Source of the DNA: Eledone cirrhosa
Taxonomy: Eukaryota
Assembly (NCBI GenBank): GCA_964016885.1
Contig: OZ024760.1
Span: 34,348,001 to 34,412,000 of the forward strand
Length of the DNA: 64,000 nucleotides
Direction of reading: 5' to 3'
Part shown: positions 1,101 to 54,790 of the stretch, piece by piece
How positions within the stretch are numbered: position 1 is the first letter of the stretch
Layout: each line of letters opens with the position of its first letter
Program-made: the position numbers and the translations under genes
The notes under the pieces: generated by a model
What the model was told of the DNA's origin: nothing
Database searches by the model: none
What the model saw: only the letters and a program-made list of their open reading frames with translations

Positions 1101-1679
1101 TTGAACAACTCTACTAAACAAAACATTTTAGTAACAGATGGGCAGAACGCAATATCTGCCTCCCAACCACTAAATGGGAGACGGGTATTGCACAACCCAC
1201 CTGTACCGCTATCACAACCTATCCATGGTATACCCGATACCTACAACAAAGCATGTAACTGCCATCTACCTGAAAGATGTCCATTGCAGAATGAATGCCT
1301 AAAGTCCAACATTGTTTACCAATGCACGGTTGAATCGGACGACCAGAAATGGTATTATATCGGATCTACCACCACATCGTATAAATCTCGCTGGTACCGT
1401 CATCGATTCTCAATCAAACATCAGAATCACCGTTTTGTGACCACGCTCGCCAACAAGACCTGGCAACTCCGTGAACACAACCAACAGTTCACCTTAAAAT
1501 GGGATATACTTTCCAGCGCAAATGCATATCGGAGTGGTTTGAAGTACTGCAGGTTATGTAACCTTGAGCTATTTTACATACTAAAATCCCAAAACAAACT
1601 ACTTAACGATAGAATTGAACGATCATTATACTGCAACCACAAACTAAAAGCTAAATTCTCTCACTATAAAATAACTTAA
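1101..1679 (+). pseudogene. PLE GIY-YIG endonuclease domain (3' end of truncated ORF)
   Basis: CNC..CPLQNECLKSNIVYQCTV..WYYIGST..KSRWYRH..CRLCNLE: GIY-YIG motif with PLE-type Cys/His residues. No RT upstream. Confidence 0.88.
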
Positions 1680-3311: not shown

Positions 3312-6239
3312 TATACTCTTTTACTCTTTTACCTGTTTCAGCCATCCGGCTGAGGCCATGCTGGGGCACCGCCCTTGTTGCTACACATTTTATCTCCAGC
3401 CTGTATAGGTTGGCTACTGGTGTAGGAGGGAGTTTGTTGCTGCTGCCCTTAGGTTTCCCTCGTGTCTTGCTGTGGGCTCATCCGGGATCCTGGATAACAA
3501 GGTGTCGAGATGTTTCTTAAAGACATCCACCTCCACGTCATGCAAGTCTCGCAGATGCCTCGGCAGCCTGTTGAAGAGTTGAGGGCCCTTGAATCCCAGG
3601 CTATTGCAATACCTGCTCCTTATTCTAGATGTGGAAGACGGGACCTTTGGTACCACACAGTGACGTCCTGTTCGACGGTTGGTCCAGCTCCCAATGCCAA
3701 AGTTTGTTGCTAGTCCCTCCAGGATTTTCCACATGTAGATCACTGCGTATCTCTCCCGTCTTCGCTCCAAGGAGTAGAGGTTCAGTTCCTTCAGCCTCTC
3801 CCAGTAGCTTGTCTCCCTCATCTTGGCAATCCTCTTGGTGTAGCTTCGCTGGATTGCCTCAAGCTCCGTGGTTAGTTTGACACTATGGGGTGACCACAGC
3901 TGGGAGCAGTAGTCCAGGCGGCTTAGGACAAAAGTCTTCCACAGTGTCAACATGGTGTCTCGATCTCTTGTAAGGAAAGTCCTCAAGATCCAGCCAGCGA
4001 ATCGTCTACATGCTGTCGCCACCTTCATGATGTGTGAAGAAAAAGATGCATCATCGCTCATGTCTATGCCCAGGTCTCGTATCGATTTTGACACGGGAAT
4101 ATCGGTCTCTCCTGGTCTTGTGTAGCTGTGTTCCGCTATATTTGTGTTTGCAGGTTTGTATTGCCTGTGCTACCTTAGTGTCATCAGCATAGCTAGTGAG
4201 GGATGTTGTTGCATGCACCACAGAGGGCATGTCCGAGAGAGCCACCAAAAACAGTAGTGGTCCCAGGACTGTCCCCTGAGGCACCCCACTTGTTATCGGT
4301 GTTTCCCTCGAGTGGGCCCCATTTGCTGCGACTGCCTGGCTTCTGTCCCTTAGGAAGCCATGCAGCCACTCACCTACTTTTCCAGTTATGCCGAGTCCGT
4401 GTAGTTTGTGACATATCATTCCGTGGTCGACCTTGTCAAAGGCCTTCGCAAAGTCAAGATATATCACGTCTACATGTGAGCTGTCTAGTAGTTGTCTCAG
4501 TACCCAGTCGTAGTGATGTAGCAGCTGTGTAAGGCAGCTTCTTCCTGGGCGGAAGCCATGTTGCGTGCTAGTCAGGCGGTCATTTTCTTCGAGGAAAGTG
4601 ATTAGTTTCTTTCTGATGACTCGCTCCATGACCTTACTGATATGCGACGTCAGGGAGACTGGCCTATAGTTCTTGACCTCCGCTCTACTACCTCCTTTAT
4701 GGATAGGGCATATTGTGCCTTCTTTCAGCTCCCTGGGTAGTACACCGCTAGCCAAGGAGCTTCTGAAGAGCATCTTCAGTGGAGTTGCTAAGGCCCGCTT
4801 ACATATTTTTAGGAGAACTGCTGGGAATCCATCAGGTCCAGCAGCCGAGTCTGTTCTAATTTCATCAATGGCGTACACCACATCCTCCTCCGTTATGTCT
4901 ATGTGGTTGATGGTTGCCATTTCTTGATGTAGTGTTGTGGCATCAAAGAACTCCTCTGGCTTCGTTATTTGCATGTGCCTCAGTGGACATGTGAAGACAC
5001 TTTTGTACTGTTCGTTCAGTATTTCACATATCTCTTGGGGATTTTCGGTTAATGAACCGTCCGTGTGGAAGAGTGGTCCAATCTTGCAGTGTACTGAGGC
5101 AGTTTCTTTTGCAAATTTAAAGAAGGCCTTAGGGTTTGTTTTAATGTTTTCTATGGCCCTGTTCTCTTTCCTTGCCCTCTCATTCTCATGTGAAAGCTTG
5201 AGTGCAATCTCGGTGTCAAGTAGTGCACGTTTCAAATAGGATTTCTTCTTGTTTTGGTTTTGTTGGTTTGAGAGTTTAGTTCTACGTCTCATAAGGATTT
5301 TCCTATCTCTGGGAATAAGATTTTTGTGTCTGTTTGCCTCTTTCTCCGGGACACACTTTTTGCATATGGTGTGTATCGTTGTCATGAAGTGTTGAAAATG
5401 TGTGTTAGTGTCTTGTTTGGCGATGTTTGCACTCCATGTTTGCTTCCGGATTTCACTCTTAATCTTCTTCCAGTCAGCCCCGTAGAAGTTAAGGCTGGAT
5501 AGCGTCCCGGAGCTTCTTGGTGGTTTTGTCTCTGTTGGTTCTCTTGGACCACATATCATTAGCTCTACCAAGTTATGATCCGAGAGAATTGTTGGTGTCA
5601 CCTTTACATTGTGGATGAGCACTTCGTTGTTTGTAAAACAGAGGTCCAGGACATTTTCGCCTCTTGTTGGGAGGAGTATTGCTTGCTCCATGAACAGCCT
5701 GTGTGTGAGGGCCAGCAGGGATTCCGTCTGTCTCTGTTCTATTGACGTCATTCCAGGGAGGAGGTGGCCCTCAGGCCATTTGACCTTTGGTAGGTTGAAG
5801 TCTCCCAGCAGTAGGATGTTGAGACCCTGGTCCAGTTTGTCAAGGACCTCTTCTATCCTACTTAGGCTATCCTCAAATTTACCCTCATGACTGGGGGCAT
5901 CGGGTGGCCGATATGTGACACATATTACCGTCTGTAGTTGCTTCATATGTATTATCAGTGTGTCACAGACTGAGTTTGAATGTGTCAACAGTACAATTGG
6001 TGTGACATCTTCACGGATATACAGAGCAACCCCACCATGAGTTCTCTCCTTCCTGTCCGAACGAAATACAGTATATTTCGGTATATGTATTTCTGCATCT
6101 GCTATACTGCTTGTCAGGTGCGTTTCGGTTAGTGCCATGCATAGTGCTTGATTGCTTATGGCTAAGTCTCCCAGGTAGGAAATTTTACTCATGTTGCTGA
6201 GTTTCACCAGGCAGGCCCCTGACATTCAGCAGCAGCACT
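3312..6239 (-). mobile_element. CR1-group LINE (APE endonuclease + RT), truncated near ORF2 start, (GTAAAAGA)n tail
   Basis: ORF 4051-6225 has ALTETHL, GDFN, SDH (APE) and [42 protein letters not shown] (RT). ORF 3414-4094 is the RT C-terminus (SRLDYCSQLWSP, SLERRRERY). Tail repeat at 3312-3331. Confidence 0.92.
3414..6225 (-). pseudogene. LINE ORF2 (EN-RT) with internal deletion/frameshift just after YADD (~4150)
   Basis: YADDTKVAQAIQT runs straight into unrelated-frame sequence. The ~45 aa present at this position in the 42450 ORF (LQSDL..WAEKNNM..KF) are missing. Confidence 0.85.
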
Positions 6240-7898: not shown

Positions 7899-10800
7899 AT
7901 CATCATCATCATCAGGTTTAGCGTCCGTGTTCCACGTTTGCATGGGTTTGGACGTGGGTTTTCCCAAGAGTGGTCGTCTTGCTCGCATAGGACTGTCTGG
8001 CGGGTTTTCTACAGCTGGATGCCCTTCCTGACACCAACCACATTTACAGTGTAGGGCTGGGAGGTTTTTACCGTGTTGCCTACACGGCCACATTTAGAGC
8101 GTGGACTGTATGTTTTTTTGTCGTGACACCTACATGATCTCATTTGTTTCGGCCTGGATGTTGTGGGACCAACATAACTTTACATTGAAAGGGGTGGTGT
8201 GGATGGGGTGGAGGTGGTGGGACGGGGGTGTGTTTTGATAGAGATGCCTACTGACTGTAGTAGGTTTTTACTTTGTATTTAGGTAAGGCGGGTCTTCTCT
8301 ATTACTGAGTACCGCCAAAGGTCTCGGTCCAGTGACATTGTCTTGGAGAGGTGTAAGCGTGTGAGGTCGGAATTTATCATTTCGTCCCAGGTTTTTCTGG
8401 GTCTGCCTACTCCGTGGCTACCGTCTATCTTTATTGCCCTGCACTTTGTTATACAGCTGTCGTCTTTCATGCGCATCACGTGACCGTACCAACGTAGCCT
8501 TCTCTCGAGTAAACATCTGATCCCTCTTATTTCTAATTTTTTCCTTAGTTCGTTTATGCTTAGCCGTTCACGTATATTACTATTGCACATCCAGCGGAGC
8601 ATGCAAGCTTCGTTCCTCTCTAGTCTGCGTATATCCTCTGCACACAATGCCCAGGTCTCACTGCCATGCAGCATTGCTGTTCGTATGCAGGCATCGTATA
8701 ACCTGCCTTTCATTTTTAGGGAGAACCCTCTAGCGGCTAATAGTGGTATAAGCTCTCTGAACTTTTTCCATCCAGTTCTGACTCTAGCTACTGTACTTTC
8801 AGAGCACCCTCCCCCACTGCTGATTTTGTCACCCAGGTAACGGAAGCTGTCCACTATTTCTATAGAACCCTCTGCACAATTGAAAGAGCTAGTATTTATG
8901 GGCACTTGCTGCTACTTATTGCACCAGAGCACCGGCCACATGTAAAATCTATGTTCTTAGTTAGCTTACCTGTGATCCCACTACATCTTTTATGCACCCA
9001 TACTTTGCATTGGGGACATAAAATGGAGTTTCTACCTACGCCTTTCCTACACACTGAGCATGGCCATTTCCCGGAAGGGACCGCCGCCTTATTTTCTTTC
9101 CTACAAACTAGAACTTTAGTCTTAGCCAGGTTAATTTTAAGGCCTTTTGATTCTAGGCCGTGCTTCCATGTTTGGAATTTCTTCTCTAGTTCGGTCATTG
9201 ATTCAGCTATGAGCGTTAGATCATCTGCGTATAGGAGTTCCTATGGGCAGCCGGTCTTGAACCCCTCTGTTATAGCCTGAAGGGCAATAATAAATAGTAG
9301 GGGGCTAAGAACAGAGCCCTGATGGACACCAACTTTTACGCTAAACTCTTCACTATATTCGTTGTTAATTCTAACCTTACTGACTGTTTCTTTATACATG
9401 GCTTGTATAGCTCTCACAAGCCATTCGTCAACACCTAGTTTTCTAAGAGCCCACCAGATAATGGAACGGGGGACTCTGTCGAAGGCTTTCTCCAAGTCGA
9501 CAAAAGCTAAGTATAGGGGTTTACTTTTAGCTAGGTACTCCTCCTGTAGTTGTCGTACAATGAAAAGAGCGCCTGTGGTACTTTTGCCTGACACAATCCC
9601 GAACTGCATTTCATCTAGATCAATTCTCTCTCTGATTAGTTGCGCTATTACTTTTTCCGTGACCTTCATGGCCTGGTCGATTAATTTAATGCCTCTATAG
9701 TTACTCCTATCTAGGGCATCTCCTTTTCCCTTATAGTAGTTAACGATGATGCTGCTACGCCAGTCCTTCGGAACAACCCCGTTCTGTACGACTTGGTTAA
9801 CTATCCGGGTGACCATGGTGTGTCCCACCGAACCAGATGCCTTCAGCATCTCAGCAACTATTTCCGAAGCCCCAGCCGCCTTACCCGTCTTCATATCTTT
9901 GATTGCCTTACTTATTATATTACCTTCGACTAACAGTGCTGGTCCCTCTATTGGGTCGATGTTGGGGAGACTGTCTTTCTCCCATTTATTCTCCTCATTT
10001 AGAAGCCTTTCGTAGTGACACTTCCAAGCTACCTTCTTATCAGCGTCGGTGATGGCAAGTATGCTATCATCGTTAAGTACACACTTCTCCCCGACAATAT
10101 CATGGTTTTCCTTGACACATTTGCCTAGCAATCCTGAACACCTCACGTTTTTGGTCCTCACGTTGTAGAACATGCTTGAACTTTCTTTCCTCTGCTTCCC
10201 TTCTTGCGAAGTACACTTGTCTCCTAGCTTCCCTCCTGGCCACTTGATAGTCTTCTCTACTTCCCCCATCCCGCCATACTTTCCAAGCCTGCTTTTTGGC
10301 CTTAATTGACTCCTCCACCTTACTGTTCCACCACCATGTTACTCTCCTCCTACCTACAGGCCTGCTCCAGCCACAGACTTCATATGCCGCCGTCAGCAGG
10401 TTTGCTTTCAGGAATTCCCACTGTTCCTCTATATTATACGACTCTAATTGCTCTTCCTTACTGTCGAAAGCATCAAGTAATATGCTTTGAAATTTATTTC
10501 TGGCTATGGGGTCCTTTAGCTTCCATATTTTTCTCCTGAGGATAGTCCTCTTCCGCTGTCTAGTACGTCTCGTCCTGACTATGAGGTCGCTAATTATCAG
10601 TCTATGTTGGGAGGTGAATTCTTCATGGGGGAGGGATTTAGTGTTAACAACAGACACTCTGTCACGTCTTCTGGTAAGGATATAATCTACCTGGCTTGTG
10701 TGTTCCCCCGATCTATAGGTGATCAAGTGATTGTCTCGTTTTTTGAAGTTAGTGTTACAGATAGGTTATTTGCCTCACAGAATTCCAGGATTCTGGAGCC

Positions 10801-12022
10801 TTCCTCATTTCTAGTACCGAACCCATAGCCTCCATGGATTCCGTCATAGCCGTCACAATGTTGTCCAACGTGACCATTTAGGTCGCCTGCAATAATTATA
10901 TAGTCACTGTCGGTTATTTGGGAGGTAGCGAGCATCAGTGTCTCATAGAATCTTTCTTTTATAGCGCCGGGAAGTCCGGATTGGGGTGCGTACGCAGATA
11001 TTACTGTCACCGTAGTTTTATTGAGGACAAGTCTTATTTTAATTATTCTGTCGTTCATTCTATTTACGTCTATTATCTTATCTGCCCACTTTTCTGCTAC
11101 CATGATTCCTACCCCACCCAGCCCATTGTCATTTCCCACCCAGAAAAGCTTATAGCATCGTTCTTTACCCACGATGAATCCAGCAGACCCTCCCCTCCAC
11201 CTGGTCTCTTGAATACAACAAACATCGACCTCCTTACGTTCAAGCATTTCTACAACCTCGTTAGAGCGACCCTTTAAGGTGCCTACATTCATGGTACCAA
11301 CTCTGAAGTTTTGGATTGCGTTCGGAGGGTGGGAGTGGTGGGGCGTGCGGTTATGTTAGCCATCCTCGGCCGAAACAAGGAGGAGTGCTTGCATTCTCGT
11401 CCACGAGGTGAATTTGTCTTTATCTTTGGCATTGTCGCTGAGCGTCAACATTTTTCTCTCTTCAACTCTCCAGAATTCCGTAGTCCATCCATCATATCAA
11501 AAAGCAACCAGTAAAGCAATAGTATGAGCCTCTGACTTATGATTGGTGGTGCGTGGGGGTGGGTGGGAGGGATGATGGGTTGTTAGCGAGAATGTAAGGT
11601 TTAAGATAAGATCGCCGTATTTTGGGCATAATTTAACAATAAACGAAAATACAAGATTTGTTTTGTTTAAGAAAATACGATAGAGAAAATGCGGTGATAG
11701 GGAAAATATGATTTTAGAGAAAAAATATGATATAGAATGGTGAAAATATGATATAGTGTGAAAATATGACATAGAATAGTGATTGAATGAAAGACTAATG
11801 GATTAGAATGTAGAGAAGAATCGAGAAAAATATTTGAATGTTACTTTATACCGATGGAACAGCCATCCCAGAAATAGCGAGTTGGCGATTTTGATTAATT
11901 TTGGTAGGGTTTATCTTATATGTATAGAGTGGTAGGGGGTGGGGCAGGAACCAGCATGATGTATGGGTAGGGGGTAGAAGATGGGATGGAGCATACAGGT
12001 TAAGAGTTTAAATAGGCACTCG
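7899..12022 (-). mobile_element. Near full-length RTE-clade LINE, frameshifted, (GAT)n tail
   Basis: Successive minus ORFs: 10723-11292 (NVGT, CIQETRW, SAYAPQ, GDLNGH: APE), 10100-10726 (QVDY, SQHRL), 9241-10269 ([31 protein letters not shown]), 8896-9198, 8279-8905 ([21 protein letters not shown]). (CAT)n at 7899. 5' boundary approximate. Confidence 0.93.
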
Positions 12023-23038: not shown

Positions 23039-23250
23039 CCAAAAATAGGACAAAATACATAACGACCAAAAGTTCATCAAGCGAACACCAACAGGAATAT
23101 AAAACCTGAACAGAGAAAAATTCATTTTTTAACGTCAGGACAACAAAAACCGGAAAAAGAAAAACTCCAGGAGGAAACATACCCAAAACAGCTGTACGCG
23201 TAGATCCTAAAATAATTAATTCATCTAAAAGAGATCTTCACAATGATGAA

Positions 23251-25436
23251 ATGCAAATTCTGTCAAAAGGACTGAAATTCACACCGACTCCAACAGTCAA
23301 CCACCAAGAACTGAAGGAGGATATCCAAGAATTCTGTCGAAAATTACGTCTTGTAGAATTCTTCGCTGATAAAAATAATGAGAGTGATGAATCACTAGTA
23401 AAGAATAAATCAAATTTCACTCCGCCAAAAGGAAGAAATATCTATCTCGACCAATACATTGACATCCTGTCTAAATTTCCTCTTAGACATAATACTAATG
23501 TTAGGCCAAACATTAACAAATCAGAAATGTCTGCACTTAAACGTATACAAAATGATAAAACAATAATAATTAAACAAGCAGATAAAGGGGGTGCAGTTGT
23601 TATAATGGATACTGAATACTACAAGGATTTGGTTGAGGAACAACTGAAAGACACAACATTCTATCATGAAATACCGTCAAATATAGACCACAACATCATG
23701 AAGAAGATCAACAACCTGGCTTCAAAATCCACAACTCATTTACTGATAAGGAAAGAGACTACATCACCAATTTTGAGCCAAAACCCAGCAACCTGTATGG
23801 CCTACCGAAAGTTCACAAGTCAAAAGAAATACAACCGGCAGTAAGAGAACAAAACAGTGAGTACATTAAATTATTACACCCAAAAGACTTAAAACTTAGA
23901 CCTATTATAGCTGGTCCAACATGCCCCACTCACCGTCTAAGCAATTTTGTTGACATTATTTTGAAACCACTATGTATTCACATACCCAGTTTCATCCGGG
24001 ATGATATCGACTTCCTGTCCCATCTTCCCAAAACCACGGAAACGAATTCACTTCTACTCAGTTTTGATGTGGTAAGCCTTTACACCAACATTACACATGA
24101 TTTAGGAATAAAGGCGGTTAAATACTGGGTGGAAAAACATAGAGAAGTGATTCCCATTAGATTCACAGCGCCATTTATATTAGACGCAGTTAAACTTATT
24201 CTGGAAAACAACACTTTCTTCTTCAATGGAAAGAATTATATCCAAATTAGAGGCACAGCGATGGGAACGAAGTTTGCTCCCGTTTACGCGAACTCTGTAA
24301 TGGGATACTTAGAACAACAACTCTACCAAGAAATAGAGGAAAAATATAGTACTGACTTTAGAAAGTACATTGAAAAATCTTGGAAGAGATACCTTGACGA
24401 CTGTTTCATCATCTGGTCAGAATCTCTAGATACTCTGGATGAGTTCAATATCCTCCTGAATAACCTACACCCATCTCTCCAATTCACAAAAGAGATGAGT
24501 AGGACCAAATTACCATTCCTAGATATAATGATAATCAAAAACGACACCACCATTACTACGGATATATATTATAAACACACAGACACCCATCAATATCTGA
24601 ATTTTAAGTCGTGCCATCCACCTCATACAAAACGCAACATCCCATACTGCCTAGCCAGAAGAATTTGTACCATTGTAGAAGATACGAATACCAGGTACAA
24701 ACGCCTAACAGAACTAAGAGAATTTTTGCTCAAACAAAAATACCCATCTCTACTTATAGAAAATGGCATACAGCGGGCTATAAAAATACCTATACAACAA
24801 CTTAGAACAACCCAAGGAAGAAGAAACCAAGAACTGGTCATACCATTTATAATGACACACAACCCATGTCACCAGAATATCTTCAACACTGCCAAAGCAA
24901 ACCTACCGATCATTGCTCAAAGTAATGAATTAAAAGGCTTAATCACAGATCGATCTTTGACTCTTAGTAAAAGACAGCCAAAAAATTTGAAGCAATTGCT
25001 AACAAAAGCAAAGTTTGACCTTAACAACAAAGACCAATCATTCACTGTATCTAAATGCAATGATAATCGATGCGGTACATGTCAATCCATACACGCCGGT
25101 CAATATATGAAAACAAAAACTGGAAAAATATTGCCAAATGCAAATATGAACTGCAAAAGCAGAAATCTAATTTACTGCATTAAATGCCCGAATTGTGAAG
25201 AACTATATGTCGGTCAAACTGGAAATGCACTATCGGAACGTGCACGGGTACACCGTCAACAAATCAGAGACCCAAATGTCCGTCAGATACCCCTAAGCGG
25301 CCACCTGGCAACATGTGGTCAGGGAATATTTATAATATTCCCATTCTACAAATTACACAGCCCAAGTGAAATCAAGAGAAAAATCAAAGAAAAGAATTTT
25401 ATTGATAAATTCAAACCCAAGCTAAATGAACAATAA
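23251..25436 (+). pseudogene. PLE RT-GIY-YIG polyprotein, frameshift near 23730-23750
   Basis: ORFs 23251-23844 and 23961-25436 join through the alternative frame (..FTDKERDYITNF..LYGLPKVHK..LRPIIAG). Confidence 0.88.
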
Positions 25437-25812: not shown

Positions 25813-25851
25813 TGAACCTGAAGATTGCGAAAGCATGAAAGTACTTGTTCA
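25813..25851 (+). ncRNA. Minimal type I hammerhead ribozyme
   Basis: TGAAC-CTGAAGA-TTGC GAAA GCAT-GAAA-GTAC-TT-GTTCA. Palindromic stem III as in PLE minimal hammerheads. Confidence 0.8.
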
Positions 25852-26136: not shown

Positions 26137-26155
26137 ATATATATATGTATATATG

Positions 26156-27617
26156 TAACTTTGAATAACTTTGAAATGTTTTGGCCAGTATTGGCCCAGG
26201 CCATGTCTAACTTAATAGCACCACCTGGCGAAGTCTTTCAATTCAGGATTTGGGCACCATGGCCCATTCGAGAAGAGAATTACTGTTTGCGGAGACATAT
26301 CCGGGTGTGGGTGGTTTGTCCGGGATTACTTGGAAGAATTTGTCCAAAGACTTCTTGAATTTTGTGTGGTCAGTTTCTGTTTTGACGTGTCCTGGTGTGA
26401 TGTTGAAGAGAGCAGGGCCGATTGAGGTGAAATAATTGTGCCGTATTGTTGTTATGAGTTGCGATTTAGATTTTTGAATGGGACGGATAGCACGGGGCCC
26501 AAGCCTTGGGTGTATCTTGAAGGCGATGCCAACATCATTTGGGCAGTGATGATGGAACATTTTCCACATCATGCAGATAATATAACGCTCACGGCGACGT
26601 TGGAGTGAGTAAAGTTTCAGGTTTTCTAATCGACCCCAGTAGTCAAGGTCTGACATGCCATCTATCTTTTTCGTGATTGCCCTTTGAGGAGCTTCAAGTT
26701 TCATGATACTTTGTTTCGTGTGGGGAGACCACAGTGGACAACAGTATTCAAGGTGTGGTCGGGCGAAGGTAGAGAAGAGAAGGATAATGGTGCGGGAATC
26801 TCTCGACTGGAAGGTTCTGAGGATCCAGGAACACATTCTGCGGGCCATGTCAACTTTGCTGCTTATATGCGTGGTCCAGCTTATGTTGCTGTCCACGGTT
26901 ACTCCCAAGTCTCTGATGTTGTTAGATGCCACGAGAGTTTCCCCCGGAGGGAAGGAGTACGGGAGTTTCAGAGCATCCTCTTTTCCAAAGTGGATCAGTT
27001 CGAATTTGTCTTCGTTCAGTAACATGTTGTTCTTTTCTGCCCATTGGGTAACAGCCAGTAGGTCTGACTGAAGGCTTATCCGGTCATCCACGCCATTGAT
27101 GACCTTTTGGAGCTTGGAATCATCAGCGAAAATTTTAATGTTGCTGTGTTTGATGATGTCAGTGATGTCATTAATATAGATGATGAAGAGAGTGGGCCCA
27201 ACACAGTGCCTTGTGGACCCCACTACTGACTTTGGCTGGGCTTGATTTGACTCCCTCAACTACAACATGTTGGGTTCTGTTTGACAGGAAGCTCTTGATC
27301 CACTGCAGCAGCTTTCCAGAGACACCAATATTGGACAGCTTTCTCAGTAGAATGTTATGATCAACCCTGTCAAAGGCCTTGCTGAAATCAAGGTAGATAA
27401 CATCAGTGTTGGAACCCTCTCCCAAGGCTCTCAAAATGTCATCAAAGTGATGCAGTAGCTGCGTCAGGCAATCCCTTCCATTACGGAATCCATGCTGGTT
27501 GGAGTTCAGCATATTGTTACTCTCAAGGAAGTGGGTCATTCGCGATCTCACCACTCGCTCAAATACCTTAATGATATGAGAGGTGAGTGAGATTGGACGG
27601 TAATTCACGGCAAGGGA
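26156..27617 (-). mobile_element. 5'-truncated copy of the CR1-group LINE at 40117-44359
   Basis: Protein nearly identical to the 42450 ORF ([14 protein letters not shown]...[12 protein letters not shown]). One frameshift at GVPQG. TTCAAAGTTA tail. Confidence 0.93.
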
Positions 27618-27687
27618 TATGTATATGTATGTATATATATATATGTATATATGTATATGTATATATATGTATGTATATATGTATGTG

Positions 27688-28142: not shown

Positions 28143-28202
28143 GTATATATATGTATGTATGTATATGTATGTATATATATATGTATATATATGTATATAT
28201 AT
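27618..28202. repeat. TG-interrupted (TA)n array
   Basis: Direct reading. Confidence 0.95.
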
Positions 28203-28216
28203 AACTGTTTATATTG

Positions 28217-28282
28217 TATTTTGTCTGATGAAGGCATAGCATATTGTTAATATGATATCCCCGAAATATATATAATGAAATA
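28217..28282 (+). ncRNA. Solo type I hammerhead in ~210-bp island (28203-28415)
   Basis: TATTTTGT-CTGATGA-AGGCATAGCATATT gtt AATATGATATCCCC-GAAA-TATATA-TA-ATGAAATA. 8-bp stem I; palindromic stem III. Confidence 0.72.
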
Positions 28283-28415
28283 AATATGGTTTTATAAATA
28301 TAGTTTTCCATTTATTTAATATTGTAAATATACTCCAAATATTAGTCGTGCTTTTATATCAGTTATAAATATTTACTAGTTGTAACCCAACAATTTTAAA
28401 TATAACTTTCCATAT

Positions 28416-30930: not shown

Positions 30931-33492
30931 ATCATCATCATCATCATCATCAGCGTTTAACGTCCGTGTTCCACGCTTGCATGGGTTTGGACGGGGGTAG
31001 TCCCACTTGAGGCAAGAGTGATTGTCTTGCTCGCATAGGACTGTCTGGCAGGTTTTCTACAGTTGGATGCCCTTCCTAACACCAACCACATTTACAGTGT
31101 GGGTCTGGGAGGTTTTTACCGTGTTGCCTACACGGCCACATTACAGCGTGGACTGTGTGTTTTTTTGTCGTGACACCTACACGATCTCATTTGTTTCGGC
31201 CTCGATGGCGCGGCAACAACATAACTTTACATAGAACGGGGTGGTGTGGATGGGGTGGGGGTGGTGGTGGTGGGACGGGGTGTATTTTGTTAGAGATGCC
31301 TACTGGCTGGAGTAGGTTTTACTATATATTTAGGTAAGGCGGGTCTTCTCTGTTACGGAGTACCGCCAAAGGTCTCGGTCCAGTGACATTGTCTTGGAGA
31401 GGTGTAAGTGTGTGATGTCGGAGTTTATCAGCTCGTCCCAGGTTTTTCTAGGTCTGCCTATTCCGTGACTACCGTCTATCTTTATTGCCCTGCACTATGT
31501 TATACAGCTATCGACTTTCATGCGCATCACGTGTCCATACCAACGTAGCCTTCTCTCGAGTAAACAACATCTGATCCCTCTTATCTCTAATTTTTTCCTT
31601 AGTTCGTTTATGCTTTGCCGTTCACGTATATTACTGTTACACATCCAGCGGAGCATGCAAGCTTCGTTCCTCTCTAGTCTGCGTATATCCTCTGCACACA
31701 ATGCCCAGGTCTCACTGCCATGCAGCATTGCTGTTCGTATGCAGGCATCGTACAACCTGCCTTTCATTTTTAGTGAGAACCCTTTAGCAGCTAATAGTGG
31801 TATAAGCTCTCTGAACTTTTTCCAACCAGTTCTGACTCTAGCTACAGTACTTTCAGAGCACCCTCCCCCACTGCTGATTTTATCGCCCAGGTAACGGAAG
31901 CTGTCCACTATTTCTATAGAACCCTCTGCGCAATTGAAAGAGCTAGTATTTTGTGGGCACTTGCTGCTACTTATTGCACCAGAGCACCGGCCACATGTAA
32001 AATCTATGTTCTTAGTTAGCTTACCTGTGATCCCACTACATCTTTTATGCACCCATACTTTGCATTTAGGACATAAAATGGAGTTTCTACCTACGCATTT
32101 CCTACACACCGAGCACGACCATTTCCCAGAAGGGACCGCCACCTTGTTTTCTTTCCTACAAACTAGTACTTTGGTCTTAGCCAGGTTAATTTTAAGTCCT
32201 TTTGACTCTAGGCCGTGCTTCCATGTTTGGAATTTCTTCTCTAGCTCGGCCATTGATTCCGCTATGAGTGTCAGGTCGTCTGCGTATAGGAGTTCCCATG
32301 GGCAGCCTGTCTTGAACTCCTCTGTTATAGCCTGAAGGGCAATAATAAATAGTAGTGGGCTGAGAACAGAGCCCTGATGGACGCCAACTTTTACGCTAAA
32401 CTCTTCACTATATTCGTTGTTAATTCTAACCTTGCTGACTGTTTCTTTATACATGGCTTGTATAGCCCTCACAAGCCATTCGTCAACACCTAGTTTTCTA
32501 AGAGCCCACCAGATAATGGAGCGGGGGACTCTGTCGAAGGCTTTCTCCAAGTCGACAAAAGCTAAGTAGAGGGGTTTACCTTTAGCTAGGTACTTCTCCT
32601 GTAGTTGTCGTACTATGAAAAGAGCGTCTGTGGTACTTTTGCCTGACACAAACCCGAACTGCATTTCATCTAGGTCAATTCTCTCTCTGATTAGTTGCGC
32701 TATTACTTTTTCCGTGACCTTCATGACCTGGTCGATTAATTTAATGCCTCTATAGTTACTCCTATCTAGGGCGTCTCCTTTACCCTTATAACAGTTAACG
32801 ATGATGCTGCTATGCCAGTCCTTCGGAACAACCCCATTCTGTACGACTTGGTTAACTATGCGGGTGACCATGGTGTGTCCCACCGTGCCAGATGCCTTCA
32901 GCATCTCAGCAACTATTTCCGAAGGCCCAGCCGCCTTACCCGTCTTCATATCCTTGATTGCCTTACTTATTATACTCCCCTCGACTAACACTGCTGGTCC
33001 CTCTATTGGGTCGATATGGGGGAGACTGTCTTTCTCCCATTTATTCTCCTCATTTAGTAGCCTTTCATAGTGACACTTCCAAGCTACCTTCTTATCAGCG
33101 TCGGTGATGGCAAGTGTGCCATCGTCGTTTAGTACACACTTCTCCCCGACAATATCACGGTTTTCCTTGACGCATTGCCTAGCAATCCTGAACACCTCAC
33201 GTTTTTGGTCATCGCGTTGTAGAACATGCTTGAACTTTCTTTCCTCAGCTTCCCTTCTTGCTAAGTACACTTGTCTCCTAGCTTCCCTCCTGGCCACTTG
33301 ATAGTCCTCTCTACTTCCCCCATCCCGCCATACTTTCCAAGCCTGCTTTTTGGCCTTAATTGACCCCTCCACCTTACTGTTCCACCACCATGTTACTCTC
33401 CTCCTGCCTACAGGCCTGCTCCAGCCACAGACTCCGTCTGTCGCCAACAGCAGGTTTGCTTTCAGAAATTCCCACTCTCCCTCTATATTGTC
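30931..33492 (-). mobile_element. 5'-truncated RTE LINE, same family as 7899-12022
   Basis: Open frame ~33490-31495 with full RT (LYADD) and a PHD-like finger. Premature stop at CIT*. Same 3'UTR and (GAT)n tail. Confidence 0.94.
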
Positions 33493-40116: not shown

Positions 40117-41264
40117 ATGATAATGAAATCGACATTCTAATAAACACATGGTATTGCCTTACCCAAACAGAAGACATAGATGCTTCATGTCTGAACGACA
40201 TTGCTAAACGTACAGTTCAACTTTTGGAAACCCGATCTGAACAACAGATTCAAAATAAATTAAAGCAAATCGAAGTTGCTTTTAAATTAATCAATAAACA
40301 TTTGGATAAACTACGGTGTTTTTTTTCTTCGGATGCAGTCCAGCAGCAGCAACAACAACAACAGCAGCTACAACGGCAACAACAACAACAGCTACAACAA
40401 CAGCAACAACATCAACAACAACAGCAACAACGACAACAACAGCAACAACAACAACGACAACAACAACAACAGTGTGAACCACTCCTTGATTCATCAACAA
40501 TGGCCGATCTACTAAATGAAACTATTGACCTCCCAGTAGCCTCTGTCTCACAGCAGGAAACGCCACTTCCTTTCTCTGGCCCAGCAGTCCAATCATTACC
40601 ACTGCCAACATCTTCTCTGCCTACTACTACAACTACTACAACATGTTTGCCTACTGCTATCTCAAGGAATTTACCTTCTAATATCAGTACAAGAACTCTC
40701 CCTCCCACAGTCCACAAAGGTCGTCAAATCCTACTCAAACCATCATCTACACCTCTCACAACACACACACCCACATACCCACCCACTCGAAACCCCATCA
40801 TTTGCCGCTACTCTCTACGCTATAGAATATGTACGGATAGTGGCTGCAAATTCACCCATTTACCTAGGACAAAACGGTCTATCCCCACAAACAGCCACCA
40901 CCATAATACATACTCTAATTTAACACCAACACAACCACCAATAACTCAAACAAGGAATCCACAAATCTGCCGCTTTTCCCTGCGAGACAGATTGTGTTTA
41001 GACCGGGATTGTCCCTTTACCCATCTCCCGGGGACCCGTCGGACAAATGAAAATAAAATTAAAAATAAAAGCAAAAACAAAAACCATAACCTACATAAAA
41101 ATAACCACTACCACAGTCACCAACAGTCTTCTAAACAGGAAACTTCTTCCTCTTTTTTAGCCATAATGAATCTGGCAAAAGAACTGGAAAAAAACATTCG
41201 AGCTATCACCCAGCACCACCCTCCACTATCACCCCGCTGCACAAACTCCCATTGCTGCCATTAA
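40117..41264 (+). pseudogene. LINE ORF1 C-terminal part: poly-Q tract and two CCCH zinc fingers
   Basis: (CAA/CAG)n at 40341-40472. [19 protein letters not shown] and [19 protein letters not shown] (C-x8-C-x4-C-x3-H). Confidence 0.75.
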
Positions 41265-44200
41265 CAAACAAACAAATTAACAACACACCAAAACAATTAA
41301 AACCATCCACTCTCGCCTCTACATTTTTGCTTAACGCCCAAGGCATCAGCCCTTCCACCAATACTCAAAAATGGAAGATCAAATTCCTGGAGGACTGGAT
41401 TGATGTCCATCCAAACCACACCCCTTTCTTCGTCCTCACTGAAACCCATCTCAGTAACCTCCACTTGGAAGCCGAGGTGAAAGTGAAAAATTTCAAAGCC
41501 ATCCGTGCTGATCGCGCTGGCAGAAGAAAGGGCGGGACTGCCATTTATGTCCATAATTCTTTCTCAACAGAGGCTATGAACATATTTATTAATGCATACT
41601 GCGAAGCAGTCACTGTATTCAGTCAAACCAACAACCTAATAGTAGTTGGGCTCTATAGGCCATCCCAAACGCCTGTACCATGCTTCAAGGAATGCCTCAA
41701 CAGCATAAAGTGTTTCATCCAAGAGTGTCACCCTGACAACATCTTAATGATGGGGGACTTCAACCTCCCCGGACTTGACTGGTCCACAAACAGCCTGCCA
41801 CCAGGTTCTTCTGCCTCAACCTCTGACAGGGAAGCAGTGGAATCGCTTCTTGACTTCATGGATGATTTCTTCCTATCCCAACTGGTGCTCGAACCAACGA
41901 GGTGCCACAATAACGTCCTAGACTTAATTTTCAGCAATCACACTGACAATATCCACAATATTGCAGTGGAGAAAACTCTACTCTCTGATCATGACATGGT
42001 TCTCTGTGATCTGAGATTCCACCGTCCAATATACAAACCCAATGTCATCTCTCCTGTCCATCCGTTTGACGCTATGGATTTCCACAATGCAAACTGGGAA
42101 GCGATCAGTCATGATCTTGCACATGTCGACTGGTCCTTCACGCACACTCATACACCCACTAACATCAAAAAGTCCTGGCAGACATTTGTGGACACTGTTA
42201 CAAACATATGTGCAAAACACACCCCATTAAGAACTATAAACAAATCTAAGAGCAGAATCCCTAGAAATAGAAAGACGCTCATCAGAAAAATTAAGAGAAC
42301 GAACAAAAAAATCAACAAGCTGAAATACTGTCAGCAGCAACACATCAACTTGACTGCCATTTCATCACTAGAGATTAAAAAACATAACCTTCAAAACAAC
42401 ATAATGTCCCTCATCAACAATCAGAGAAGAGCTGAAGAGGCCTGGGCCATTGAGAAGATCAAACTCAATCCCAAAGTGTTCTTTTCATTTGCAAAAAAAC
42501 ACAAAATCACTGGCTCTACTGTTGGCCAGTGATGGAAATGGCACTCTTCAAGACAATGCTAAATCCATGGGTGAGATACTGCAGAAACAATACTGCTCTG
42601 TTTCCAGCAATCCTGATATGGCCGATCTGGGCTGTATCGGCGATGTTACTCCCCATTACACCTTATCGGACATAACGTTTGGCGCCCCTGATGTCTTAGC
42701 GCCAATAAAGGAAATCAAGCATAATTCAGCAGTAAGTCCCGATAGGTTCCCTGCTTGTGTCTTGAAGGCGTGTCAACACCAACTTGCATCTCCTCTTGCC
42801 AATCTGTGGCGGAACTCACTGGATGCTGGATATGTGCCAGAAAACCTTCTATCCCAGTCTGTTGTCCCAGTCTTCAAAAAAGGAAACAAATCCCTTGCCG
42901 TGAATTACCGTCCAATCTCACTCACCTCTCATATCATTAAGGTATTTGAGAGAGTGGTGAGATCGCGAATGACCCACTTCCTTGAGAGTAACAATATGCT
43001 GAATTCCAACCAGCATGGATTCCGTAATGGAAGGGATTGCCTGACGCAGCTACTGCATCACTTTGATGACATTTTGAGAGCCTTGAGAGAGGGTTCCAAC
43101 ACTGATGTTATCTACCTTGATTTCAGCAAGGCCTTTGACAGCGTTGATCATAACATTTTACTGAGAAAACTGTCCAATATTGGTGTCACTGGAAAGCTGC
43201 TGCAGTGGATCAAGAGCTTCCTGTCAAACAGAACCCAACATGTTGTAGTCGAAGGAGTCAAATCCAGCCCAGCCAAAGTCAGTAGTGGGGTCCCACAAGG
43301 CACTGTGTTGGGCCCACTTCTCTTCATCATCTATATTAATGACATCACTGACATCATCAAACACAGCAACATTAAAATTTTCGCTGATGATTCCAAGCTC
43401 CAAAAGGTCATCAATGGCGTGGATGACCGGATAAGCCTTCAGTCAGACCTACTGGCTGTTACCCAATGGGCGGAAAAGAACAACATGTTACTGAACGAAG
43501 ACAAATTCGAACTGATCCACTTTGGAAAAGAGGATGCTCTGAAACTCCCGTACTCCCTTCCCTCCGGGGAAACTCTCGTGGCATCTAACAACATCAGAGA
43601 CTTGGGAGTAAGCGTGGACAGCAACATAAGCTGGGCCACGCATATAAGCAGCAAAGTTGACATGGCCCGCAGAATGTGTTCCTGGATCCTCAGAACCTTC
43701 CAGTCGAGAGATTCCCACACCATTATCCTTCTCTTCTCTACTTTTACCCGACCACACCTTGAATACTGTTGTCCACTGTGGTCTCCCCACGCGAAACAAA
43801 GTATCATGAAACTTGAAGCTCCTCAAAGACCAATCACGAAAAAGATAGATGGCATGTCAGACCTTGACTACTGGGGTCGACTAGAAAAGCTGAAACTTTA
43901 CTCACTCCAACGTCGCCGTGAGCGTTATATTATCTGCATGATGTGGAAAATGTTCCATCATCACTGCCCAAATGATGTTGGCATTGCCTTCAAGATACAC
44001 CCAAGGCTTGGGCCCCGTGCTATCCGTCCTATACAAAAATCTAAATCGCAACTCATAACAACAATACGGCACAATTATTTCACCTCAATTGGCCCTGCTC
44101 CCTTCAACATCACACTAGGACACGTCAAAACAGAAACTGACCACACAAATTTCAAGAAGTCTTTGGACAAAATCCTCCAAGTAATCCCGGACAAACCACC

Positions 44201-44267
44201 CACACCCGGATATGTCTCCGCAAACAGTAATTCTCTTCTCGAATGGGCCATGGTGCCCAAATCCTGA
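41153..44267 (+). pseudogene. LINE ORF2 (APE-RT), single frameshift near 42525
   Basis: GSTVG| continues as DGNGTLQD in another frame; otherwise open. Confidence 0.88.
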
Positions 44268-44359
44268 ATTGAAAGACTTCGCCAGGTGGTGCTATTAAGT
44301 TAGACATGGCCTAGGCGAATACTGGCCAAAACATTTCAAAGTTAAGTTATTCAAAGTTA

Positions 44360-45476
<1,117 letters not shown>

Positions 45477-48375
45477 GTACAATAAAGCAATGCAGATATC
45501 GGATAAGAAGCACTCTACAGTTTGTAGGACTGGAGTATACATAATATATAAGATCAAAAGATGGTTAAAGGAGTTCCATGTATTTTATTATGCGCATTTC
45601 AAAAACAAACATCATCATGCAATAATATTTGTGTTTTCATCAGATAAAACAGGAGGACATGATGTGTGATATTAGGAAACATATTTTATTTAGAGAGGGG
45701 GGGTGGAAAGGATGAAAAAAAGGGGGGGGGATGAGGGTGAAGGCGGAGAGGGAGAGATGGGTGATAGAGAGAGAGAGATAGTTTTTATAACTGAGAAAGA
45801 TATATTGTTTTACATAGAGAGGTTGAAAACCGTTGGAAGATAATGTATAAATTAAAAGAATTTGAAAATTAACGAAGGGAAAAATATGTACGAAGAAGGA
45901 GAGGGAGTTAATATGTATTGAGATTAAAAAGTTTGATGATAGAGAGAATAGAATAATGAATTGCGGATGAATATTCTAACGTCAAAAAAATGTGTGTATG
46001 TTTACAAGTATTATGGAAATTTGAAAATCAACGAAGAGAAAAAATTATTAAGGTTTGTGTATTGAAGGATTTGAGAAAAATAATATGAAGTTAAGGTTTG
46101 TATATTGAAGGAATTGATAATATGTGCGAAGAAAGAGTTAATATGTATTAAGAATGAGTTAGATGATGGGGAGAAAAAAATGAATTAAGGATGAATAATC
46201 AAGCGTCAAAACAAATGTATATGTTACGAAGGATTTTACAAGGTGAAAATAGAGTAAGGGTAATGAGTAAACAAGTATTATAGAGTGTATAATACCCTTT
46301 GAAATAAGGTAGGAAGATGGGTATATTTTAAAAGAGGTGTATGTATATGTGCCTTTGAGAAAAGATTCTAAATTGATAAAGAATTGAATATTAGCTGTAT
46401 ACTTTGTGAAATGTCTTATGGAATTTATGCAAGCAGATAGAAAACAAATCTGTTCGTCTATTTATTATAGAATCTAGATTAGAGATAATGGTAAATTTTT
46501 CATTTAGGCAGAGATTGCAGATTTTAGATAGAGAGCTGTTCAAGTATGAAGACGCAGAAGAAACCTTCTTCCAAAAGATGGTATATTTAATGTTTTTGTC
46601 TTTCAAGGACCATATGAGTTCTGAGAGAGCCGTGTTGGTTCTTTTAAGTTTGTATTTAAAAGAGGTGGAAGTGGAGCCAAAATAGGTGAAGGAATTGGTG
46701 TTAGTTATAACTTTACATTCATAAATTAAGTTTTTATCAAGGCAATGGTTGTTGAGAGGACATTTATTTTTAATAGGGCAATTGTAATTGCAATTAGAGA
46801 GATTATTAATGAGTGACCTAGTGTTATCTATAGAAGGAATTGGATTGGAGAAGTTGTTTGCGATAGGAATAATAGTTTCTTGATTTAGAGTTGGATTATG
46901 AACATTTAGCGAAGTTGTGTTTGACGTTGTATTTGGGTTTACAGAAATTAGCCTAGGGTTTACAATGACGTCGGGAGTACTATTACTGTTATTATGAAAT
47001 TCAGTGTTGGAAGGAAGAGATTTAGTATTTAGTATTTTATTGTTGTGTTTAGAGATAATGTTGGAAATATTGGAGGATGTAGAATAAGAAAATTTGATGG
47101 TGTGTTTGTTAAATATTTTACTATAGATATGTGAGGTAGGGAAGCATTTATTTAAGGCACTAAAGAATAATTTAGGAATATTGTTATTAATAGAGATGGA
47201 GAAAGGAGCATTATACCAGATTATGTTTTTGTATCTAGGTCTTTTATTAAAGTTATTGGAATGATCATGATTAATTATTCTACTGTAAGTTCTTCTAGAA
47301 TTTGTTTCTTTACTATATTTGATTTTATCAGGATAGCCGGCTTTAGAAAGTGCGTTATTATAGTAATTGGCGTTAGCATCAAAGATGTTTTTATTAGAAG
47401 ATATGTTAGATATTCTTTTTCCAATACTACTAACTATAGCATTCTTGATATTAGTAGGATGGTTAGATTTAAAGTTAACATAATTTAGGTTCTCATTGTT
47501 TTTATGGTAAGGGTAATATAGGCCAGTGTCAAGATTAAGAGATACATCCAAGAAATTAGCTAGTTTGATACTGTTATCAAATTCAATTTTTAGCTTATGT
47601 TGGTTAAAGAGATTACGTATATTGTTCTTAATAATATTAAGGTTAACTATATTGCAATTTAAGATAGTAAAGAGTCCATCGTCACGATAAATTCCACCGC
47701 GAAGTTGAGGAATTTTCCGACTCAAAGAGTTCAAAATAAAGATACCAATTAAATCAGTCAATTGGGATGAATCGGATGCTCCCATTGTGATGTCGAAGTT
47801 GTTAGAGGTATCGGCTCTGGTCCAATATTCGTTGTTGAACTCTAAGGATGGTTTTACGTGCGGTGAGGATGATGTGAAGTTCATCTGTGGTGATGTCAGA
47901 ATATTTAAGTGCGAAAGATAGAGCATTATTGAGTAGTGAAGGCGAAATGGAGGAATAGTAGCTGGCAATATCAAATTGAATAAATTTTAGTTTGTTTTTA
48001 TTATCCAATTTGTTGAACCAGCCAATCACTTCAGAAGTACCAAACCATAAATTTAGGTTCAAAGAAGAGCAATTAGAACGAACCTGTGGGATAATTCTAC
48101 CCAAGATGGCTTTACTAACAACCCCCAGATCAGATTTAGAGGGGGCGATTAATCTAACAGGTAGTTCAGTGCGAAAATTGTTTTTGTGAACCTTGAGATT
48201 TATCCTCGGAGTTCTTGGGAGGAATGGTTCGGTCTTTTTTTCAATGCCAAGTTTTGACATAATCTCAGAGGCTTCAAGGTTTATGTATTCTAAATTTTCA
48301 CGGTTGGTTTTACGATATTTTTTCCTAAGTTCCTTTAGGATAAGGTTGTTATAATTATCCTTGGAAATATGTTAT
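45477..48375 (-). mobile_element. Penelope-like element, 5'-truncated, frameshifted
   Basis: LKVHK..PVRLIAP, FIQFDIASYYSSI, TMGAS, GIYRDDG, FLDV, IIWYNAPFS, CPLNNHCLDKNLIYEC..TYFGST, CNLCLNEK. Long 3' region with hammerhead. Confidence 0.92.
45583..45649 (-). ncRNA. Type I hammerhead in PLE 3' region
   Basis: Minus strand: TTTTAT-CTGATGA-AAACACAAATATTATTGC ATGATGATGTTTGTTTTT-GAAA-TGCGCA-TA-ATAAAA. Palindromic stem III. Confidence 0.8.
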
Positions 48376-49928: not shown

Positions 49929-50020
49929 GCAGAGGTTATATTTAATTTGTTGGGATTCAACAAGCTTAAACATTTTTATAACTGATATAAAGCACTCAAC
50001 AGTTTGGTGGAGTAAATCTA

Positions 50021-50278
50021 CAATATATTAATAAATGGAAACTATATTTATAAAACCATATTTATTTTATTATACATATTTCAAGGGCCACCAATCCAGG
50101 AAGCTCCAACCATTAAGGTTGTCTTTTTTGAAGGTATGTCAATATTTATTTATAAAACATATCTGTATTGTATTTTATCTGATGAAAGCGCACCATAATT
50201 TGCCTTGGTGGCCCTTAAAATATGTATAGTAAAATAAATATGGTTTCATAAATATAGTTTCCATTTATTAATATATTG
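50021..50278. mobile_element. Small inverted-repeat pLTR-like island (arms 50021-50094 and 50205-50278)
   Basis: Arms are reverse complements with ~3 mismatches. Homologous to the island at 28210-28325. Confidence 0.75.
50171..50236 (+). ncRNA. Hammerhead motif with GAAA>AAAA (inverted arm retains GAAA)
   Basis: TATTTTAT-CTGATGA-AAGCGCACCA..TGGTGGCCCTT-AAAA-TATGTA-TA-GTAAAATA. Confidence 0.62.
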
Positions 50279-50349
50279 TATATATAATGCCAGGTTTACC
50301 AGACCATGGCAGATTAATTCCTGGTCATGGAGTCTTCCACATCAGTTTT

Positions 50350-50870: not shown

Positions 50871-50943
50871 TATCCAATCCATAATTCTGAAGACAAACTC
50901 CACGACACCTTCGTTAACTCAACATCCTGCGATGATTCAGCCG

Positions 50944-53900: not shown

Positions 53901-53965
53901 ACCGGTGGACAGATTTTTGTGTTATTCGAAATGCTTGTAGTGTCTTGACCGGTGGAGAGATTGTG
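50944..53965 (+). repeat. Tandem satellite, ~65 units of 45/47/50 bp
   Basis: Unit AAATGTTTGTAGTGTCTTGACC(G/A)GTGGACAGATTATT(GT)(GTT)GTTACTCC, head-to-tail with no spacers. Confidence 0.97.
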
Positions 53966-54069: not shown

Positions 54070-54790
54070 TAGCAACAACACCTTTAAGAAAAGTAAGCGC
54101 AATAATAGACAAACTATCTGGTTCTCTCCTCCCTTCTCACTCAACGTAAAAACCAATGTAGGAAAAAAATTTCTAGCCCTCTTAGATAGACACTTTCCCA
54201 TAGGTCATAAATACTGCTCCATCTTTAACACAAAGTTAAACTAGGATACTCCTGCGCTAAGAACATGAAGGCCCACATCACCAGCACCCCTAGGAGCAAC
54301 ACCCCACCAGGGTGCTCTTGCCGTAAGCCTGAAGCTTGCTGGAGGTCAAATCCTATGTGGGCATGGCGGAGGGCCGATTCAAGGAACGTTTCCTGAACCA
54401 CCAGTCTACCTTCAAATACCCGGACATATGTTCATCCACGAAACTCGCGAGCCACGTATGGTCCCTCAAGGACTCAAGTACAGACTATTCCATCCAATGG
54501 AAAGCCATCACTAAGTCAAAACCATACGCAAGGGGAAATCCGACGTGTGGCTTATGTATTGACGAACGAATAACTATTCTAAAGAGATTACGCAATAGTG
54601 ATTGCCTAAACATGAGAAGCGAATTTTCTATATGTTGTCCACACATCGCCAAACACCTATTACATAACTATAAGGCTCCGGACTGATTCTTTGTATTTTT
54701 ATTTTATTTTCAACCTAAAAACTTTTCGGACTTTCGCAGTTATCTCCCTTACACCTCTCGCACACAGTCTAGTATTGCCTGTGTGAAGTT
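54070..54790 (+). mobile_element. Decayed 3' part of a Penelope-like element (GIY-YIG)
   Basis: TIWFSPPFSLNVKTNVGKKFL..HFP (homologous to IIWYNAPFS in the 46391 ORF) and KSYVGMAEGRFKERFLNH..CGLCIDE..CPH. Confidence 0.85.

Follow-up and report, generated by a model that had tools for sequence, protein, structure and literature searches.

The two hammerhead-bearing islands in the window, a stretch of 64,000 nucleotides from Eledone cirrhosa, are, on the evidence of their sequences, the 3′ ends of a coding Penelope-like element (PLE) of the Hydra clade, each from one of two sister subfamilies. We consider it quite likely that they are pseudo-LTRs (pLTRs) of these subfamilies whose stem II has drifted by compensatory substitution, and that the many short copies found elsewhere in the genome mostly arise by reverse transcription that runs to the start of the transcript. 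Dispersed solo hammerheads derived from truncated PLEs are already known; the start-anchored class of solo copies described below is the one addition.

The islands and their coding relatives

Island A (28201..28415, forward strand) is a 5′-truncated 3′ end (pLTR) of the A subfamily of the Hydra-clade PLE and lies within (TA)n. It begins about 24–27 nt before the hammerhead core, has neither the GGTATGT motif nor the start motif CACT, and carries the long 3′ end of the family. Its hammerhead comprises the 5′ strand of stem I (28211–28224), an intact CUGAUGA core (28225–28231), a stem II of 31 nt (28232–28262) in which a C-C mismatch is conserved and two others, A-C and G-A, are peculiar to the A subfamily, a segment (28263–28274) of GAAA and the palindromic stem III AUAUAUAU (28266–28273), judged from sequence and the duplex energy of the palindrome, and the 3′ strand of stem I (28275–28287); by hammerhead numbering, cleavage would be expected after A28274. 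The optional tail of about 90 nt by which the family's long 3′ end exceeds the short one occupies 28327–28415.

Island B+ (50094..50283, forward strand; locus L031) is a pLTR of the B subfamily whose 5′ junction, at −85, is 3 nt past the likely transcription start and which stops at the short 3′ end. It contains a conserved motif, GGTATGTC (50132–50141), which resembles a splice donor and may also pair with the motif on the CACT side, and a hammerhead (50165–50241) made up of stem I (50165–50178), core (50179–50185), stem II (50186–50216), AAAA (50217–50220) with G12 replaced by A, stem III AUAUGUAU and the 3′ strand of stem I (50229–50241), which its sequence suggests is likely inactive. Joined head to head to B+ is a third copy, C (49929..50094, reverse strand), an inverted partner cut off within the stem II loop, which has no CUGAUGA but an intact GAAA and the long 3′ end, and which is 82% identical to the tail of A over 170 nt. 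Copy C and the loss of core G12 (AAAA for GAAA) in the hammerhead at 50171 had been overlooked in the sequence-only reading, whose description of a shared scaffold (28211–28320 and 50165–50270) and of two islands unattached to any ORF is nevertheless accurate: A and B+ align with 78% identity over 145 nt (E 2e-21), and no coding ORF adjoins either of them within the window.

Elsewhere in the genome, near relatives of A continue upstream, across a UTR of about 1.35 kb, into an ORF, and both stem types stand 1.25–1.45 kb downstream of a Hydra-clade ORF, the A-type stems 1.3–1.45 kb after the ORF end and the B-type stems 1.25–1.43 kb after that of the sister ORF; the exact stem II of A recurs at L189, 1,383 nt after the ORF end. 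At L061 the order pLTR–ORF–3′UTR–pLTR is preserved in a unit of 3,841 nt, accompanied by an inverted truncated copy. Ten of the first 100 genome matches are ORF-linked (63 had at least 1.9 kb of upstream sequence, and two false links, L137 and the second match at L064, were left out of the count), and 12 of 30 loci selected by their ORF have a hammerhead within the 1.5 kb examined downstream. The identity of the ORF to that of L062 falls with stem II distance, from 98–100% in A through 78–98% in intermediates to 59–82% in B, these values being taken over segments of unequal length. The postulated link to PLEs and mobilization by a PLE reverse transcriptase are upheld, whereas a separate non-coding family is contradicted, both stem types ending coding PLEs and short and long copies interleaving on a tree of pLTRs.

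The placement of these elements in the Hydra clade follows from the motifs of the ORF, which match the clade as defined in PMC8557442 (Craig et al. 2021) by a C-terminal EN, RW[K/R], DKT, a CxCX5C linker, and CxxC with CxH. The single ORF upstream of the pLTR in L061 and L062 contains the RT motif YRDD and YVGST...FKLRY of a C-terminal GIY-YIG-like EN; the RWK motif appears as RIRWR (K to R) and DKG has become DKT in SDKTN, while the B-type ORF of L205 has RLRWR and DKTN. The linker CNCRDRSKC (CxCX5C), CDLC (CxxC) and CKH (CxH) are present in the ORF, in which no match to CX2-5CxxC or CCHH was found, and a Pfam search with the Hydra ORFs returned nothing at E≤1. With a threshold of E≤1e-20, a homologue search gave 574 proteins, of about 700 aa; of the 120 listed, none is labelled Hydra, and no species is named other than Argonauta hians (a cephalopod) and Oculina patagonica (a coral). 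The Naiad clade was ruled out, as the EN is C-terminal with Hydra motifs.

In comparison with the Hydra-clade elements described in the available parts of PMC8557442, the present ones share the C-terminal EN, RW[K/R], DKT, the CxCX5C linker, the absence of CCHH, CxxC and CxH flanking E and N, the hammerhead and (TA)n targets, as well as partial tandems, inverted 5′-truncated partners and a tail at one end only. They differ in carrying RWR instead of RWK, in having a tail of about 90 nt rather than 30–40 nt, and in their very high copy number (at least 41,579 scaffold matches). The L061 unit of 3.84 kb exceeds the size of "generally <3 kb" given for Hydra elements in the same source, a tendency rather than a strict criterion, because of its 3′UTR of about 1.35 kb.

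Hammerhead structure and the divergence of stem II

As RNA, the scaffold fits a model of a type I hammerhead, with stem I, CUGAUGA, a stem II of 31 nt, GAAA and a palindromic stem III of 8 nt, and the cut is predicted after AUA; the hammerhead architecture originally proposed is borne out. The exact scaffold pattern with an intact core occurs 41,579 times (20,887 + 20,692) in the 3.0-Gb genome, and its reversed control not at all. In 23 distinct aligned variants, scored for pairing on the hammerhead structure, 94.5% of cells are paired, as against 38–50% in slid controls, the rows being related so that shuffle values are not probabilities. Seven of the nine pairs of stem II show compensatory double-sided changes (e.g., G-C in 11 and A-U in 10 variants), and RNAalifold recovers stem II independently (covariation term −2.25), but it favours an alternative over stem I. 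Variation in stem I is confined to A-U/G-U exchange and stem III is invariant, so that no double-sided change was seen in either stem among the 23 variants, which makes them no more than compatible with the hammerhead.

The structural case rests on this comparison, since Rfam reports no hammerhead at either island (E≤10) and single-sequence folds of the islands, no better than shuffles (z 0.01–0.65), do not yield an active hammerhead; a hand-drawn active-like fold of A, whose stem II is weakened by two mismatches, has +1.9 kcal/mol, against −8.7 for the MFE structure. In an Rfam scan of the whole window, (TA)n matches to miRNA models swamp the result (best 150 of 600 rows). The models of Rfam 15 miss this whole hammerhead family despite its more than 41,000 copies in one genome. 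The CUGANGA...GAAA...UH core with stems I–III is present in A and in 2,604 B-type genome copies, whereas B+ lacks G12 and C lacks CUGAUGA. Because G12A is sporadic, occurring in 33 B-type copies versus 2,604 intact ones, B+ is a decayed copy, and an amplified ribozyme-dead lineage was ruled out by the same numbers; the apparent frequency of G12A among the B matches of one similarity search is an effect of the query.

The stem II hairpins of the two islands had been read as sharing no sequence and, accordingly, as a variable cassette within a conserved scaffold. Both are 31 nt long, however, and agree at 18 of 32 aligned columns (56%), a value reached by 71 of 2,000 pairwise shuffles and therefore weak when taken alone. 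A chain of natural variants connects A with B in steps of at most four edits over a total edit distance of 15, and three pairs of stem II differ between the two by compensatory change. Distances between stems II rise with those between the upstream flanks (Mantel rho 0.76, 0 of 2,000 permutations, 43 distinct stems), which argues against cassette exchange, and no clean-breakpoint join of an A flank with a B stem II occurs among these stems. The identity of stem II between A and B is in line with that of the initial 43 nt of the pLTR (59%) and of the 3′UTR (52%); the unusual part is the stretch just after GAAA, which is 94% identical. On these sequence comparisons, the stems II of A and B diverged step by step through compensatory substitution, and the cassette idea is refuted.

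Most PLE hammerheads are dispersed, single and variable, and sometimes occur in opposite-strand pairs, as reported in the accessible text of PMC4209133. The present motifs resemble known PLE hammerheads in being of type I with a long helix II and a small palindromic helix III, in occurring as single motifs "probably related to truncated PLEs" and as opposite-strand pairs, and in their high variability within a genome with compensatory changes. They are unlike these in the conserved C-C mismatch of stem II, in a stem I of up to 13 bp with a bulge, and at position 10.1–11.1, which is mostly A-U here (19 of 23) and G-C in the known examples. The more than 41,000 copies constitute a graded, covarying series of stems II with which to test which features PLE hammerheads need.

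Junctions at the CACT motif and the origin of the short copies

A CACT(A/G)(C/T)C motif, kept in all subfamilies, lies about 88 nt before the core and is followed 39–46 nt downstream by a GGTA(T/C)GTC motif, the intervening sequence being variable (38 reference copies); the A of CACT is 88–90 nt before the core in the A and B types and 64 nt in a distant subfamily. Among the first 100 matches, of which 18 without usable upstream alignment were left out of the count, 24 5′ junctions lie around the A of CACT, at most 10 nt to its downstream side and 1 nt to its upstream side, and only one true junction is seen over a further 35 nt in the upstream direction (binomial p ~1e-12, inverted pairs being counted once). 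In a set of 163 non-targeted copies, 57 junctions lie at −10 to +4, 6 at +5 to +59 (plus denoting upstream) and 54 copies are longer; 14 copies begin exactly at the A of CACT. In the genome, there are 1,380 occurrences of the B-type 25-mer immediately inside the motif and 182 of the adjacent 25-mer on the outside, a drop partly confounded by upstream subfamily variation. The class of solo pLTRs proposed at the outset therefore exists, with a discrete 5′ end at CACT and fixed 3′ ends, and by its sequence B+ belongs to this start-anchored class, A being cut deeper. The statement named as refuting an independent element, namely that all homologues are ordinary 3′ ends of coding PLEs with random truncation points and no independent amplification, is true in its first part, false for the truncation points in view of the pile-up at CACT, and true in its last part as far as sampled by a tree of 131 pLTRs.

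The promoter of D. virilis Penelope lies wholly inside the 3′ pLTR, with a start-to-intron spacing of 46 nt, according to the accessible portion of PMC2377424. By analogy with this arrangement, in which the start is likewise inside the pLTR and a donor-like motif lies about 43–46 nt downstream, the A of CACT is likely the transcription start of the pLTR, although the start is located here from genomic junctions; that an intron begins at GTATGT is a guess. The available parts of PMC8557442 describe no Hydra transcription start site, and the pile-up thus offers a base-precise prediction of transcription start in the Hydra clade. The distant subfamily has the same motif with its own pile-up at −64 and a TATA box near −31 in all six copies with native upstream sequence, whereas none of 66 A/B-type copies has a TATA box, and a cap-derived G was not seen at the exact junctions (3 of 14). 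Spliced retrocopies joining at GTATGT were sought: the A pattern gave no match, and the B pattern gave 11, whose letters look like small donor changes and not a splice junction. PLEs retain introns, and the search is uninformative for this reason. Contigs of three runs of unknown kind contain neither a skip-type joint nor a pile-up of ends, and their depth is no copy number. The upstream pLTRs of the ORF-bearing L061, L174 and L205, where three pLTR–ORF junctions were seen, extend beyond the motif (to −365 in L061), showing that longer-than-unit or read-through templates also exist.

At the opposite side, copies of the family stop at either of two fixed positions separated by about 90 nt, and both of these 3′ ends continue into (TA)n, as do the 3′ ends of nearly all listed copies. 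Each of the 17 inverted pairs of one family found in the first 100 matches, read by eye, combines one long and one short 3′ end, and the B+/C pair does likewise. In the anole Poseidon element PAc, two internal RT start sites and an optional tail were demonstrated in vitro with matching genomic ends, the template being uncleaved RNA and the hammerhead requiring protein, as given in the accessible part of PMC11167929. The two 3′ ends found here are, by analogy, compatible with Poseidon-like internal RT start sites and share with PAc the apparent use of an uncleaved template, both being read from junctions; a difference is that the ORF starts after the tail here and inside the hammerhead in PAc (PMC11167929). 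Penelope and Poseidon represent PLE clades other than Hydra, and the start, intron and RT sites are here deduced from genomic junctions only. Internal RT initiation has been shown in vitro with matching genomic ends for one Poseidon element (PMC11167929, as far as available), and the pile-up at CACT would provide a genomic test of it. Inverted pairs with identical spacing recur far apart on C1 (31 nt at 7.2 and 172.3 Mb, and 70 nt four times at 212–213 Mb), through either segmental duplication or fold-back that took place repeatedly at one point. At L130–L133 (C4:316.578–316.593 Mb), four B-type ORF-fragment copies with a period of about 4 kb probably arose when an inverted insertion was duplicated locally in tandem.

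In the mechanism we favour, transcription would begin at the A of CACT within the pLTR, the protein would nick (TA)n, and reverse transcription would begin at an internal position of the RNA, namely either of two tail sites, in a Poseidon-like manner. Initiation at the distal tail would give randomly truncated long copies, whereas initiation at the tail nearest the 5′ end would copy the first 190–280 nt of the transcript back to the transcription start and run off, leaving start-to-tail solos such as B+; earlier fall-off of the RT would account for island A. As copies span the cleavage site, the template RNA is presumed to be uncleaved or religated, and the ribozyme, whose palindromic stem III is unstable, may cut only as a dimer or with the help of protein. 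Selection on the ribozyme would then act in master elements, and inserted copies would decay.

The descent of the short copies was followed on a pLTR tree of 131 rows of about 150 nt (72 long and 59 start-anchored, four "mid" rows being left out), which has limited power. The labels change 32 times, against a shuffled mean of 42.6, and are thus somewhat clustered, which may come from inverted pairs and ORF-targeted sampling; supported branches require at least 17 of these changes, both classes are represented in two sets of identical rows, and no solo-only group of more than three rows is found on this tree. A GCTAGCG variant considered as solo-only was ruled out because it is also present in the long copies L025 and L152. 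Head-to-tail arrays of short units are absent from the first 100 matches (17.8 Mb), where 18 of the 26 neighbour pairs within 4.5 kb are inverted, seven same-strand and one tail-to-tail; three same-strand pairs less than 1 kb apart are of different variants. From the interleaving of solo and long copies and the lack of short tandem arrays, it appears that each coding subfamily gives rise to solos repeatedly as a by-product. No description of start-anchored solo pLTRs of Hydra elements was found in the open-access literature searched.

Three other explanations bear on these observations. The start-anchored solos might propagate themselves like SINEs, being transcribed at their own loci from an internal promoter and copied in trans, as their discrete 5′ end at CACT and a Penelope promoter entirely within the 3′ pLTR (PMC2377424, as far as available) would allow; in addition, all 24 start-anchored copies among the first 100 matches continue into (TA)n or flank and never into an ORF, and the exact upstream 25-mer occurs in only four of the first 100 copies of one B subfamily. 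We regard this as unlikely, because the tree is interleaved with mixed sets of identical rows and because only 6 of 24 solos are exact at the start, a minority that suggests erosion of the 5′ end under repeated copying. Of the features of a SINE-like derivative, discrete 5′ and 3′ ends were found, but not, on the 131-row tree, a lineage apart from coding copies. The fuller claim, that thousands of start-to-tail solos (about 190–280 nt, with promoter, hammerhead and RT start) are self-propagating, map the first Hydra promoter and reveal internal RT initiation at the 5′-proximal tail in vivo, appears improbable as well. Were the solos transcribed, host transcripts could be affected by small units of promoter plus ribozyme numbering in the tens of thousands.

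Alternatively, the pile-up at CACT could be a structural stop, caused by fold-back of the RT or cDNA at a conserved hairpin of about 45 nt or by a cut of the RNA there. In most sampled subfamilies, single-sequence folding places a hairpin with URCC/GGUA closure 2 nt past the motif, many junctions are fold-backs, and the upstream pLTRs of ORF-bearing units pass the motif, all of which would suit such a stop. For the RT, however, the expected stalling point is the hairpin's 3′ base (−41) and not its 5′ edge, where the junctions lie; moreover, a consensus fold of the upstream hairpin recovers 0 pairs, and the distant subfamily's TATA box at −31 speaks against a stop, leaving this explanation a modest chance. 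Least probable by far, and scarcely tenable, is a separate, non-coding, retrozyme-like ribozyme family with an exchangeable stem II. The copies without an ORF in the window, and the contrast between the scaffold after GAAA and stem II, had made it attractive, but the first 43 nt and the 3′UTR are as diverged as stem II, intermediate stems exist and track their flanks, both stem types are ORF-linked, and there are no tandem short units among the first 100 matches, most close pairs (18 of 26) being inverted. Non-LTR retrozymes, as described in the accessible part of bioRxiv 10.64898/2026.07.22.740005, share the type I hammerhead, non-coding copies and a kinship with pLTRs, yet form head-to-tail tandem units, of which there are none among 100 matches here, and the present copies are collinear with coding elements.

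Further elements in the window

A more distant Hydra-type element (45574–48371, reverse strand), broken in two frames, is 41% identical to the L062 ORF. Its hammerhead at 45643, which lies 766 nt after the ORF end, has a stem II of 36 nt and a different stem III palindrome, AUGCGCAU, so that palindromy of stem III is kept relative to A and B although the letters change. At 243–2339, an inverted pair (800 nt, 98.8%) surrounds a Hydra-type EN fragment (1254–1664, forward strand); within the pair, CUGAGGA at 2176 (forward) and 406 (reverse) is followed about 85 nt later by GAAACACUUGUA, and a stem I-like closure is recovered by folding. These two, read by eye, are possibly hammerheads with an unusually long stem II (fold z −0.7). 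With a further Hydra-type ORF fragment at 54077–54644 (forward strand), the window contains at least four Hydra-type families.

A canonical PLE at 23110–25436 (forward strand), with RT and GIY-YIG Pfam matches and a CX4CxxC linker, is Neptune-like by the scheme in the available parts of PMC8557442, and is accompanied at 25818 by a minimal hammerhead, the stem II of which has 3 bp. A minisatellite of 45 nt (50943–53961; about 66 copies, 91% matches) has no hammerhead core inside. Remains of non-LTR retrotransposons, recognized by RT and/or AP-endonuclease, lie at 3414–6225, 7899–11355, 26141–27622, 30937–33489 and 62115–63974 on the reverse strand and at 41135–44374 on the forward strand; near-identical pairs among them are 7899–10435 with 30937–33489 and, inverted, 26141–27622 with 42886–44374.
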